Positions 16,609 through 62,328 of a stretch of 64,000 bases of DNA are shown here, piece after piece. Source of the DNA: a virus; the IMG/VR virus record IMGVR_UViG_3300023179_000011, positions 1-64,000 of that record, one strand, 5' to 3'. The position numbers were made by a program, and so were the translations under genes. The stretch's first letter is position 1. Every line of letters starts with the position of its first letter. The notes under the pieces were generated by a model, which worked only from the letters and a program-made list of their open reading frames with translations, was not told where the DNA came from and searched no databases.

Positions 16609-17763
16609 CTATTTTCGCTTTCTGCCTTTTGGGGCAGGAAGCAGCAATTCAAGCGCGGTGGTTTGCAGTAAATCACGCAGGGTGTGGTAATGCCCGCGTG
16701 AACACCGCAACATAGCACAAAACAAGTCGTAGGCAGTGCGCTGCTTAAGCACTTCTTTTGTGTAAACGTCAATGGCATCACGCGGCTCGATGTCCGCGCC
16801 GACCATTGCCGTATTTCGAATAATTTGCTTGGCGTCTTCTCGTGTGATCTTGAACTTCATCAAGTACGAGACCCATTTGTCGTTCGCCGCGTCCGTCGTG
16901 TTTTTGTCCGGCGAAAATTCCATCGACAGCCGCATAAGCGCCGTTACGCGAGCAGCAACGGCGTTCATATCAATACTGCGCTCAGCGACGTTGCCGGCCA
17001 TGATCGCCGTGCGGCCGACCAGATCTGCACCTGTATGATTAAGCCGGCCGCCTTTGCCCGCAGGCGAAAGCGCGGCGCCAAACTTTGTATACAGGCACGT
17101 CGACGCGCGAATGGCGTTTCCGGTGTCTTCACGATTTGAGAAATACCAGCCCGCCGCGAACGTGTGGCGCGGATCAGTATAGATATCTGTACGCCGCGAT
17201 TTAGGGTCTATGAAATATAGCCGGAGTTCTCGCCCCAGCAGCTCGGCCCGAAAAAACTCAGCCTGCGGTTGTTTGTCGTACAGTTCGTTGCTGACGGTTT
17301 CCATAAAAACGCTGTTATCCAGCATGCGGTGATCGAGGCCAAGAAAGCCCTCGACTGACCGTTCTCGATGGTTTACAAGCAGAGTGCGTTCGCGCAGTGC
17401 ATCAAACCTAACACGAAGCGTCGTGTTGTAAATACTGACCGCCGCCGCGATATCTGTCCCGCGTGTGGTCGTCCGCACCTGCCTGACGTTTTCGCCGGAC
17501 AACTCGTTAAACAACTGCGCCAGACCCACAGACAGTACCGAAGCCAACGCCCGAAAACCGATGGCGTTAAACCGGTAACCGTTTTCTACGATGCTCCCGT
17601 CGGGCCCCATAATTAACTGGGACTCCTCGACAACAGGGACCGACTCCGTACTCGCGGAGCGCATCTCAAGAAACTTTCGGCACTCTTCTAGCTGGTTTGC
17701 CGCGAACGAGAACGCCGGCACGGGCGCAAATACACTGCGCACAGTTGTAGTTGCCGACGACAT
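16609..17763 (-). CDS. DUF932-like protein
   Basis: GFLGLDHRMLDNSVF; ELRLYFIDP; AGWYFSNREDTG resemble the DUF932 layout. Confidence 0.4.
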   Translation of the reverse strand: MSSATTTVRSVFAPVPAFSFAANQLEECRKFLEMRSASTESVPVVEESQLIMGPDGSIVENGYRFNAIGFRALASVLSVGLAQLFNELSGENVRQVRTTTRGTDIAAAVSIYNTTLRVRFDALRERTLLVNHRERSVEGFLGLDHRMLDNSVFMETVSNELYDKQPQAEFFRAELLGRELRLYFIDPKSRRTDIYTDPRHTFAAGWYFSNREDTGNAIRASTCLYTKFGAALSPAGKGGRLNHTGADLVGRTAIMAGNVAERSIDMNAVAARVTALMRLSMEFSPDKNTTDAANDKWVSYLMKFKITREDAKQIIRNTAMVGADIEPRDAIDVYTKEVLKQRTAYDLFCAMLRCSRGHYHTLRDLLQTTALELLLPAPKGRKRK

Positions 17764-38431: not shown

Positions 38432-38502
38432 ATGCCCGACTAGGATTCGAACCTAGACAAAGAGAATCAAAATCTCTTGTGCTACCGTTACACCATCGGG
38501 CA
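38432..38502 (-). tRNA. tRNA-Gln (anticodon UUG), no encoded CCA
   Basis: Acceptor TGCCCGA/TCGGGCA (U1-A72); D stem GTG/CAC; anticodon stem AGAGA/TCTCT with loop TTTTGAT; T arm CTAGG-TTCGAAT-CCTAG. Confidence 0.95.
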
Positions 38503-60034: not shown

Positions 60035-60571
60035 TTAGCCCTTTGCAGGAGCCGCGACGCGACGCGGACGTGACGACGTGACAGCCGGCTTACCAACACG
60101 CGTGTAAATACCGCGGTTGTCAGCCGACAGGCAGCGACCCTCAGCCCAGTTCCGCAGCCGCTCGATCTGCTCAGCCGACGTCACCGAAATCGGTACGACG
60201 TTCTGGGCAGCTTCGACGAGCGGGATATCAAGCAGCGCAGCGAGCCTGCAGCACGACTTGATCTCGGCGCCGGTCCAGTTGGCGTCGTCCGGCTTTTCCT
60301 GCGACGCATCGACACCGAAGTGCTTGAGGTAAATATCCCAGATCGCTGCGCGCTGGTCGGCGCCGGGCAGATCCACGAAGAAGATACCGTCGAAGCGCTC
60401 GGCGCGGGCAAACGGCGCCGGCAGCTGACTGGCGTCGTTACAGGTACCGATAAAAAACACATCCGACGTATGATCGTTGAGCCATGTCAGCAGCGTGCCG
60501 AACAGCCGGGCGGAGACACCCGAATCGGTCTGCCCGGAGCTTCCAACGCCAGCAAGACCCTTCTCGATTTC
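60035..60571 (-). CDS. AAA+ ATPase (Ycf46-like), exon 2
   Basis: Begins GAA ATC GAG AAG: EIEKGLAGVGSSGQTDSGVSARLFGTLLTWL...FFIGTCND...RAERFD..FFVDLP...WTGAEI. Completes Walker B. Confidence 0.92.
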   Translation of the reverse strand, partial: EIEKGLAGVGSSGQTDSGVSARLFGTLLTWLNDHTSDVFFIGTCNDASQLPAPFARAERFDGIFFVDLPGADQRAAIWDIYLKHFGVDASQEKPDDANWTGAEIKSCCRLAALLDIPLVEAAQNVVPISVTSAEQIERLRNWAEGRCLSADNRGIYTRVGKPAVTSSRPRRVAAPAKG

Positions 60572-61380
60572 CGTTGATGTTACGAATTAGCCGTTTCCGC
60601 TAATTCTCCTGTATTTTCATACAGGACCAGACTATGTCATCTTGTAGCGTCGCACGTTGCATCTGTTGCACAAACCTTTTGATGCGTGCGGCGAAGTGGT
60701 TAGCCCGCAGGAAACGCACGCGTCGTATTGCGTGCTCCAGCGGCCGGACTTTAATAATTTTGGCGTGGCGTATTTTGCTGTGCGTGCCGCCTGTAGTTCT
60801 GTTTTGTGTTCTAACAAATGACAGCGTCTACAAACAGTTTCAAGATTGTTTAATGCGTTGTTTGGATTTTTATTTCCACGCCCTAAACGATCTTTGTGGT
60901 GTACGACAAGTTTTTTCTTTTTGCCGCAACGAAAACATTGTTGTTCGTCGCGTTCAATTACGGCTGTTCTTTTGCCGTTAAAATGTCGTTGTTCGCGGTA
61001 ATTTTTTCGATACTGCAAACAATCGGCATGGTTGTCGTAATACCATTGTTTTTTGGTTTCGGCTATGCGTTGATGATTCTTGTCGTCATTGCGATAGCGT
61101 TCCAAATAACAAATTTTGCACAGTTCTTTTGCCATATGCGGACGCTCAGTCAGGCCGCACGATTGGCAACAGGAACATTTTTTTGACCACATCTCAAAAC
61201 TCTACTACAAGGCCCCCATTTCGAACCCACTTGGGTCCTACGATCTTTCGATCTAGTCGTTGAACCTTCCAAGTATATGAGTACTTGGCTTGGCTGCAAG
61301 TTGCCCGGCTTACGCTGAGGGGTTTCTTGCAATTAAAGGGCTTTTCACTGATTTGTCGCCAAATCAGGGGACTGAATTCA
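60572..61380 (-). mobile_element. group I self-splicing intron (IA-like, 809 nt) carrying an HNH ORF in L8
   Basis: 5' exon ends ...GGAU; P1 GGAU/GUCC has a U-G wobble. P4 UGCAAG/CUUGCA; P6a CCAAGUA/UACUUGG; R GUUCAACGACUA; P7 GACUA/UAGUC; P7.1/P7.2 hairpins; P8 CUUGUAG/CUACAAG; P9 hairpins; terminal G at 60572. Confidence 0.93.
60632..61192 (-). CDS. intron-encoded HNH homing endonuclease
   Basis: RDEQQCFRCG...VVHHKD...NALNNLETVCRRCHLLEH core. The stop codon lies inside the P7 3' strand. Confidence 0.9.
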   Translation of the reverse strand: MWSKKCSCCQSCGLTERPHMAKELCKICYLERYRNDDKNHQRIAETKKQWYYDNHADCLQYRKNYREQRHFNGKRTAVIERDEQQCFRCGKKKKLVVHHKDRLGRGNKNPNNALNNLETVCRRCHLLEHKTELQAARTAKYATPKLLKSGRWSTQYDACVSCGLTTSPHASKGLCNRCNVRRYKMT

Positions 61381-62328
61381 ATCCACGAACAGGACGCACG
61401 GAGCCATCGCGTCAACCTGCTTGAGCGCGCGGCGCATGTTACCCTCGGACTCACCCACGAACTTACCCATGAGCGAACCGAAATCCAGCATTACGGTCGG
61501 ACGACCGACCTCATTGCCAAGTGCTTTGGCAAACTGCGACTTGCCGCAGCCCGGAGGCGACAGCAGGAGAACGCCCTTGGGGCGCTTGTCTACGTTGGTT
61601 TCTCCCTGCCGCCGCATAGCGCGCAGGCAGAAACTCTTCAAGTTTTCTAGGCCGCCAAGATTCTCGAAATTGGCGTCGCCACGATAGAGCGTCATCGTAC
61701 CGCTCTTTTCAAGCGTCTGCGCCTTGATACCCCAGATCGTATCGGGCGACAGCTTGTTGTTGCGTACCAGCGACAGCGCGAACGCATTCTCGGCTTCCTG
61801 CCGAGTCAGGCCGCGGGAGGCGTCAACCACCGCCGCAACTTCATGCTCGGTCGGCTTGGCGAACGGGGAGCCGTCAGGAAACAGCTCGTTGCAGACGGTC
61901 TTGAGTTGTTCCAGATCTGGCAGCTCGTGATGAACTACCGTAAACAGCTTCTCGACCTCGGGCTGCAGCTGCAGCACCGGCGCGACGATAATGATATGTT
62001 TACCTTCGCCCTTACCCTGCACGACGCGGTTTGCAAGTGCCTGCAGCACTTCCGGGTTGCCGAGAAACCGGTGAAAGTTCTTTAGCACAATAAGCATGGG
62101 CTGCTTGGGTTGCGGCTGATCAAGAAACCGCAACGCCTGCAGCGGACCGGGAGCCTGTGCGTTCCCCGAATAAAGCTGGCGGTCGATGTCCCAGACATCG
62201 AATCCCCATTCCTTCTCTTCCGTTACACGACGAATCGACGCAATCGCGTCGTCGCACTCCTGCGATTCAACCCAGATGCCGGAGAAGCCGGCGCATACCA
62301 GCTCCTTGATTTCTTTTTCGAGCGACAC
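61381..62328 (-). CDS. AAA+ ATPase (Ycf46-like), exon 1
   Basis: GGLENLK; PKGVLLLSPPGCGKS (Walker A); VGESE.NMR.AL; APCVLFVD, with Walker B cut before its Glu. Spliced product is 494 aa. Confidence 0.92.

Follow-up and report, generated by a model that had tools for sequence, protein, structure and literature searches.

An AAA+ ATPase gene is interrupted inside its Walker B motif

The window analysed in this study is the whole 64,000-nucleotide stretch covering positions 1 to 64,000 of IMG/VR virus record IMGVR_UViG_3300023179_000011. The record is 199,845 bp long with a CheckV completeness of 98%, and it represents a freshwater phage of approximately 200 kb. On the minus strand of the window, we found a gene for an AAA+ ATPase in which a group I intron separates the Asp codon of Walker B from the adjoining Glu codon (D316|E317), and a further ORF lies within the intron (Table 1). 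The GC content of the intron was 44.9%, compared with 59.8% for the exons.

Table 1. Positions of the ATPase exons, the intron, its ribozyme elements and its ORF in the window
Feature	Position	Strand	Description
Exon 1 of AAA+ ATPase gene	61381..62328	-	316-aa ORF; ends GTG GAT (...CVLFVD); N-terminal domain, Walker A (GCGKS), Walker B strand through its Asp
Group I intron, IA2-like, 809 nt	60572..61380	-	RF00028; starts with in-frame TGA (61380..61378), terminal G at 60572
Exon 2	60035..60571	-	178 aa plus stop; starts GAA ATC GAG (EIEKGLAG...); Walker B Glu, sensor 1 (TCND), Arg-finger region, C-terminal lid
5' ribozyme core	61204..61384	-	P1, P2, P3, P4, P5, P5a, P6, P6a, P7 5' strand, P7.1, GUA, P7.2, P3 3' strand, P8 5' strand
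P1	61384-61379 / 61374-61369	-	GGAU|UG with CAGUCC; U.G pair at splice site
P7 5' strand	61258-61254	-	P7 = GACUA/UAGUC
P7.1	61253-61242	-	followed by GUA linker
P7.2	61238-61223	-	directly past GUA linker
P8 5' strand	61208-61204	-
Intron ORF	60632..61192	-	186-aa HNH endonuclease; in P8 loop; PF01844 and HNH PHROGs
3' ribozyme core	60572..60648	-	P8 3' strand, J8/7, P7 3' strand, P9, P9.1, 3' tail ending in G
P8 3' strand	60648-60644	-
P7 3' strand	60634-60630	-
P9	60625-60608	-	GAAA loop
P9.1	60606-60584	-

Both exons were recognised by the AAA profile PF00004, with residues 253-316 of exon 1 matching profile positions 1-64 (53 bits) and exon 2 matching positions 72-130 (29.8 bits). The match to phrog_8638 (PHROG 8638) was contiguous across the junction, exon 1 reaching profile position 371 and exon 2 continuing from 372. 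Joining the exons gave a protein of 494 aa (...APCVLFVD|EIEKGLAG...), and the intron-less homologues P0121 to P0126 were likewise 494 aa long, 86-98% identical and colinear, with no indel at the junction. Exon 1 was 98% identical to residues 1-316 of P0121, and in tblastn searches the exon 2 alignments started in all relatives at residue 1, directly past the intron. The intron boundaries are unique because a one-base shift of either boundary alters the product, and they are fixed because the host protein is colinear with the intron-less alleles.

A preliminary description of this locus, made from the letters alone, had read the exon ends, the in-frame TGA and the first codons of exon 2 in this way, and all of them were confirmed at their positions. 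Its prediction that splicing would yield a 494-aa AAA+ protein with a restored Walker B agreed in length and colinearity with P0121-P0126, and its suggestion that intron-less alleles be sought in related phages was answered by alleles that are up to 98% identical and gap-free at the junction. It had also pointed out that ORF callers break the gene. This was indeed the case, since the call in the window itself was a 239-aa exon-1 piece (P0165), and on related contigs the 316-aa, HNH and exon-2 pieces were called separately. The HNH ORF inside the intron was absent from that description.

An intein reading of the insertion was considered and rejected, as the first codon of the insertion is an in-frame TGA and a ribozyme lies within it, while an intein is recognised by a Hint domain and the absence of stops.

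The intron contains a complete ribozyme core supported by covariation

A search with the Rfam group I model RF00028 matched positions 61390..60608 over the full length of the model (1-253) with 68.6 bits (E 2.8e-15), compared with a gathering score of 50 bits, and this was the only RF00028 match in the whole 199,845-bp genome. The result upheld the earlier call of a group I intron at the Walker B D|E boundary, and the elements that had been described as readable, namely P1 with its U-G pair, P4, P6, P7, P7.1/P7.2, P8, P9 and the terminal G, could all be placed. P7.1 and P7.2 joined by GUA define subgroup IA2 among phage introns (PMC3428280), and on this arrangement we regard the intron as IA2-like. 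The loops of P2 and P5a were GNRA tetraloops. [quoted passage not shown]

To assess covariation, we trimmed the ORF loops from eight different copies of the intron in related phages and aligned them, which gave 75 pairs and 600 pair cells. Standard pairs filled 585 of the 600 cells (~98%), and compensatory double changes occurred in 17 pairs. Moving the 5' strand of P5 by one base removed the mismatches and added one further compensatory pair (C-G to U-A), giving 18/75. The compensatory changes were located in P3, P5, P6, P6a, P7.1, P7.2, P8, P9 and P9.1, while P4 and P7 were invariant across the copies and therefore uninformative for covariation. When the 3' partners were slid by 1-3 columns as a control, 29-44% standard pairs and 0-4 compensatory pairs were obtained; the structure was derived from the same aligned sequences, so its pair counts are favoured over the slid controls, whereas the compensatory changes are free of this bias. 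RNAalifold and single-sequence folding recovered each helix from P1 to P9.1 but the pseudoknotted P7. A P10 helix was not claimed, as it comprised at most 3 bp and was broken in the related copy L007.

On seven assembly-derived related contigs, six of the RF00028 matches scored 57-80 bits, and that of L007 was lower. The divergent copies fell below the gathering score, with 38 bits for L007 and 40 bits for L102.

An intact HNH gene lies in the P8 loop

The ORF in the P8 loop matched PF01844 with 26.0 bits against a cut-off of 21.4, and the motif CxxC...HH...N...CxxCH..EH was readable in its translation, with CxxC pairs flanking the HNH core. Its TAG stop codon falls inside the 3' strand of P7. 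The ORF was intact (186-188 aa) in all six other copies of the HNH type, and the dN/dS ratio was 0.10-0.19 in the five comparisons for which dS could be estimated. An identical HNH protein occurred on 5 contigs, the longest being 204 kb (P0241). Because an HNH gene is carried inside it, the intron has the appearance of an ordinary mobile intron.

The HNH family was small, with ten clusters by word-indexed search, and a PDB sequence search with the protein yielded no informative homing-enzyme relative and nothing beyond weak similarity of the HNH core to an IscB construct (E 0.002). We further observed that a Cys-rich motif, C..CG.T..PH.AKGLC..C..R.Y, is repeated at the N and C termini of the protein, with no Pfam model over it. 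These repeats may be paired zinc-ribbon DNA-binding modules. The enzyme is a candidate nuclease of new specificity for Walker B-encoding DNA.

Intron-bearing alleles are scattered among related phages

Insertions at the same codon boundary were found in the related metagenomic contigs L002, L003/L004, L005/L006, L007 and L008, which were reached via exon-1-only proteins of 316-320 aa, and two IMG/VR scans yielded the further copies L016/L073, L022/L081 and L033/L092. We then placed the host protein in a maximum likelihood tree of 34 alleles. The window fell in a clade of seven members (support 100/98), the other six of which have no intron, and the intron-bearing alleles were scattered over at least five places on the tree. 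Between the window and L002, dS was 0.55 for the HNH gene and 1.55 for host exon 1, and DNA identity was 90% for the intron and 75% for the exon.

The sequences flanking the insertion site also distinguished the two types of allele. The junction was GTGGAT|GAAAT in each of the 9 intron-bearing alleles and GT(C/T)GAC|GAGATC in 30 intron-less alleles. The two synonymous differences in the upstream flank coincide precisely with the exon bases of P1, where G-4 pairs with C and U-1 with G. This pattern is consistent with co-conversion of the flanks as the intron homes, with selection that favours pairing in P1, or with a combination of the two (PMC2988022), and hitch-hiking by co-conversion alone could explain it without selection on P1.

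An allele of a different kind was observed in L083 (IMGVR_UViG_3300027777_001718), which has no intron although its flanks are of the intron type (GTGGAT|GAAATT), and whose sister on the tree is the intron-bearing L081 (support 100/99). Its sequence is probably the footprint of a precise intron loss, and because L083 has this appearance, losses probably occur in these phages. The intron-bearing, intron-less and probable loss alleles together form a natural data set for the homing cycle.

A mobile self-splicing intron best explains the locus

We consider it very probable that the insertion is a mobile, self-splicing phage group I intron of the IA2 type, which carries an HNH homing endonuclease gene in its P8 loop and is lodged inside the Walker B motif of an AAA+ gene. 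The data contain a ribozyme structure with covariation, exact restoration of the reading frame, an intact HNH gene under selection and a patchy, horizontal distribution. Splicing of the intron and nuclease activity of the HNH protein are predictions.

In group I chemistry, an external guanosine attacks the 5' splice site and the freed exon then attacks the 3' splice site. In the window, the pre-mRNA would fold such that the exon end GGAU and the guide GUCC form base pairs in P1, and the external guanosine would attack past the U of the U.G pair. The freed exon 1 would then attack past the terminal G, joining GTGGAT to GAAATC, and the spliced mRNA would encode the intact 494-aa ATPase. During co-infection, the HNH protein would nick or cut intron-less alleles (GTCGAC|GAGATC), and repair from the intron-bearing genome would copy in the intron along with a short stretch of adjacent exon sequence.

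If the intron had instead decayed and no longer spliced, the ATPase gene would be a pseudogene in this phage, which would be in keeping with closest relatives that live without the intron. We judge this very unlikely, as the core helices are all intact and are kept by compensatory changes, both exons are open with a dN/dS of 0.017 against the nearest intron-less allele, the exon bases of P1 are present, and the same HNH protein is found on 5 contigs. A mere split of the gene was also considered. Some T4-like split genes have halves that are made as separate polypeptides and then assemble, and the two ATPase halves might be produced in the same manner on either side of a free-standing HNH gene, as the separate pieces reported by the gene callers and the free-standing HNH relative beside an uninterrupted AAA gene in L104/L105 would allow. 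However, the HNH gene is enclosed in a complete ribozyme, exon 2 has neither a start codon nor a ribosome-binding site at the junction, its first possible start lying 37 codons downstream, and a D/E split would part catalytic residues located on one beta-strand. This arrangement is therefore extremely improbable in our view.

Another possibility concerns the history of the intron rather than its nature. It could have been inherited vertically and lost many times, with no recent horizontal homing into this phage, and L083, with its intron-type flanks and its intron-bearing sister (100/99), does look like one such precise loss. However, when the window is compared with L002, the dS of 0.55 for the intron's HNH gene is about a third of the host dS of 1.55, a difference that is not expected under vertical descent, and the six alleles closest to the window have GTCGAC|GAG flanks, which are not loss footprints. 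We regard a purely vertical history as improbable, and we retain horizontal homing of a self-splicing intron as the explanation for its presence in this phage.

Comparison with known mobile introns

The DNA polymerase introns of phages SPO1 (I-HmuI), SP82 (I-HmuII), Bastille (I-BasI) and the cyanophage Pf-WMP3 (I-PfoP3I) resemble the intron of the window in several respects (PMC3428280). They occupy a conserved site in a phage protein gene, contain P7.1/GUA/P7.2, carry an HNH ORF in a peripheral loop that enters core helices, and have a patchy distribution among related phages. However, these introns sit in DNA polymerase genes, while that of the window sits in an AAA+ ATPase gene, and the Pf-WMP3 ORF starts in P6a, while that of the window lies in P8. 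Unlike the enzymes of these introns, the HNH protein of the window has Cys-rich repeats at both ends, and it has about ten relatives by word-indexed search.

I-TevI, the endonuclease of the T4 td intron, is a GIY-YIG enzyme, unlike the HNH protein of the window. The td intron is otherwise similar, as it belongs to IA2, follows the self-splicing chemistry predicted for the window, occupies a critical conserved insertion site and homes with co-conversion of its flanks (PMC2988022). The splicing and homing of td are experimental results, whereas those of the window are deduced from its sequence, and the host genes of the two introns differ.

Jug phages, which are huge phages of the gut (PMC12880540), and Bastillevirinae (PMC11878797) are likewise large phages in which conserved genes look broken through group I introns or inteins, often accompanied by HNH genes. 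In Jug phages, 2,513 introns were reported, and introns are now known from many essential genes of large phages (PMC12880540). The genes named in these reports are terL, nrdD, DNA polymerase and similar ones, whereas the genome of the window has a single intron, located in the AAA+ gene of a DUF1257-DUF2997 module.

The class of intron described here is well known and our understanding of group I introns is unchanged; its host gene is one that we did not find reported. In practical terms, the annotation of the locus should be corrected, as the two 'broken' ORFs and the 'McrA-like' gene represent one 494-aa AAA+ ATPase and a mobile intron. At least six related phage lineages from metagenomes need the same correction.

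The host ATPase is conserved and its catalytic motifs are repeatedly targeted

The host protein is an AAA+ ATPase of the classical clade, with Walker A (GCGKS) at residue 260, Walker B at D316|E317 and sensor 1 (TCND) in canonical order. In an NCBIfam scan of the protein for Ycf46, no curated model reached its cut-off, and the best partial matches were to CDC48, CdvC, FtsH and PAN; some homologues bear the generic JGI name SpoVK/Ycf46/Vps4. The 'Ycf46-like' label of the preliminary description thus gained no support from curated models. The neighbouring genes encode a DUF2997 protein (59.8 bits), a weak DUF1257 match and a DUF1281_C-like protein. In cyanobacteria, a pair of DUF2997 and DUF1257 genes is known beside fed7 (PMC4284462).

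The preliminary description had also argued that an insertion in the most conserved codons of the gene implies strong selection on it in this phage. The argument was not supported in this form, because conserved sequence is a known target of both introns and homing endonucleases (PMC2988022) and the position of the insertion alone is insufficient. Strong purifying selection on the host gene was shown independently of the insertion site by a dN/dS of 0.017-0.13, the lowest value being that against the nearest intron-less allele. This intron extends the list of intron host genes to an AAA+ ATPase whose phage module is widely conserved and uncharacterised.

In homologues of the host ATPase, we additionally observed inteins at three catalytic motifs. 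At Walker A, the insertion PPG|C...HN|xGKS was found in P0013, P0055 and P0069; in the Walker B strand, at a point 15 nt upstream of where the intron sits, SP|C...HN|CVLW was found in P0030 and P0031; and at sensor 1, IGT|C...HN|CND was found in P0009 and P0023. The codons of the catalytic motifs of this ATPase are thus repeated targets of introns and inteins.

A sizeable sister family of AAA+ proteins of about 500 aa (P0252, P0255, P0256, P0263 and many others, as well as the exons of L102) was found to have its core segments swapped. In these proteins, the Walker B strand and the next helix (..IVF(M/I)DEIEK.F.G...SG.SQ..) precede Walker A (GPPGTGKS), and the usual position of Walker B is skipped, the sequence passing directly to sensor 1 (FIATCN). 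When mapped onto P0252, the segments of the window protein appeared as A, C, B, D, and the Pfam AAA model covered only profile positions 1-54 in this family. By a simple motif test, the swapped order was present in at least 69 of 131 full-length representatives. A literature search, which was not exhaustive, found no direct report of a segment-swapped AAA+ domain.

A wider phage lineage includes the ribozyme

The exact 28-nt core spanning P7-P7.1 was found in 46 IMG/VR contigs (L011-L056), and in only 5 of these was it located in the AAA gene. Approximately 30 of the other contigs share one different exon and intron sequence, the tested example of which interrupts a major capsid gene of the SU10 type, and two further tested contigs carry the core in family-B DNA polymerase (PolB) genes. 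Among the 41 contigs outside the AAA gene, the capsid and PolB assignments are based on Pfam searches of six representatives and on the shared exon and intron sequence. A heuristic that names the interrupted gene from the upstream ORF was discarded for these 41 contigs as imprecise.

Outside the metagenomic contigs, the 3' domain of the intron (P7'-P9-P9.1) shared 84% identity across 66 nt with DNA of Vibrio phages 1.187.O and 1.193.O. This 66-nt stretch was the only match when phage-record DNA was searched with the whole intron, and the search gave no close relative among cultured phages. In Vibrio phage 1.193.O (L057; MG592562.1 58035-63100), we observed that the annotation breaks the terminase large subunit into several separate CDSs around the 66-nt match, which suggests that this cultured phage has introns that are missing from its annotation. 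Because of the capsid, PolB and terminase-region matches, the ribozyme can be assigned to a wider phage lineage that resides mostly in classical host genes.

That the AAA gene is an unusual intron host, as the preliminary description had proposed, is supported for this ribozyme lineage by the 5 of 46 contigs that carry the same core in it, and no publication on an intron in this AAA gene was found. The underlying literature search was not exhaustive and gave no direct report for this host gene.

Related arrangements at and near the insertion site

In L007 (2474-3201; ENA ERZ27313610, contig k141_1101555), the D|E site is likewise occupied by this ribozyme, with P8 reduced to a short hairpin. 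Its P6 loop contains a 189-aa ORF of the LAGLIDADG type on the opposite strand, which matched PF00961 with 23.7 bits and had weak PDB matches to the I-CreI family. One ribozyme lineage therefore carries nuclease cargoes of two different kinds. A bottom-strand LAGLIDADG ORF is also known from the capsid-gene intron of mycobacteriophage LittleE (PMC3706429), which is a precedent for L007 and not for the window, and its host gene and ribozyme differ from those of L007. Promoter and terminator scans around the window intron and the antisense ORF of L007 gave nothing above chance.

A second, different group I intron was found in L102 (1562-2382) and L103 (ENA ERZ27254231 and ERZ27247314), with an RF00028 E value of 1e-7 at its 40 bits. 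It is inserted in a distant AAA homologue 5 nt downstream of the site used in the window, at GACGAGAU|...G|C GAA (GAC GAG AU|...G|C GAA AAG). Its P1 is 7 bp long and includes a U.G pair. The HNH protein that it encodes is 46-48% identical to that of the window. In L104 (2186-2725) and L105, another HNH relative (42% identical) is free-standing just downstream of an uninterrupted 526-aa AAA gene, where no intron was detected. A free-standing, 'pre-adapted' endonuclease is expected under collaborative homing (PMC2988022), and L104/L105 show that arrangement.

Two cargoes occur at one site (a sense HNH gene in P8 and an antisense LAGLIDADG gene in P6), HNH genes occur at two sites 5 nt apart as well as free-standing, and inteins occur at three motifs. 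Because of these observations we tentatively raise the possibility, which we ourselves rate as rather doubtful, that the AAA+ gene of the DUF1257-DUF2997 module and its segment-swapped sister family form an unrecognised hotspot for self-splicing elements in which several stages of mobile-intron evolution are preserved. If this were true, the locus would provide a natural series in which to test whether mobile introns arose through 'collaborative homing'.

Several other RNA features were observed in the phage genome. At least seven tRNAs were present, one of them in the window (38432-38502) and several in L095, L099 and L101. Beyond the window, L101 contained a tmRNA (RF00023, 149.5 bits) at 775-1131 and a match to the abiF RNA motif (RF03085, 44.6 bits) at 17091-17126.
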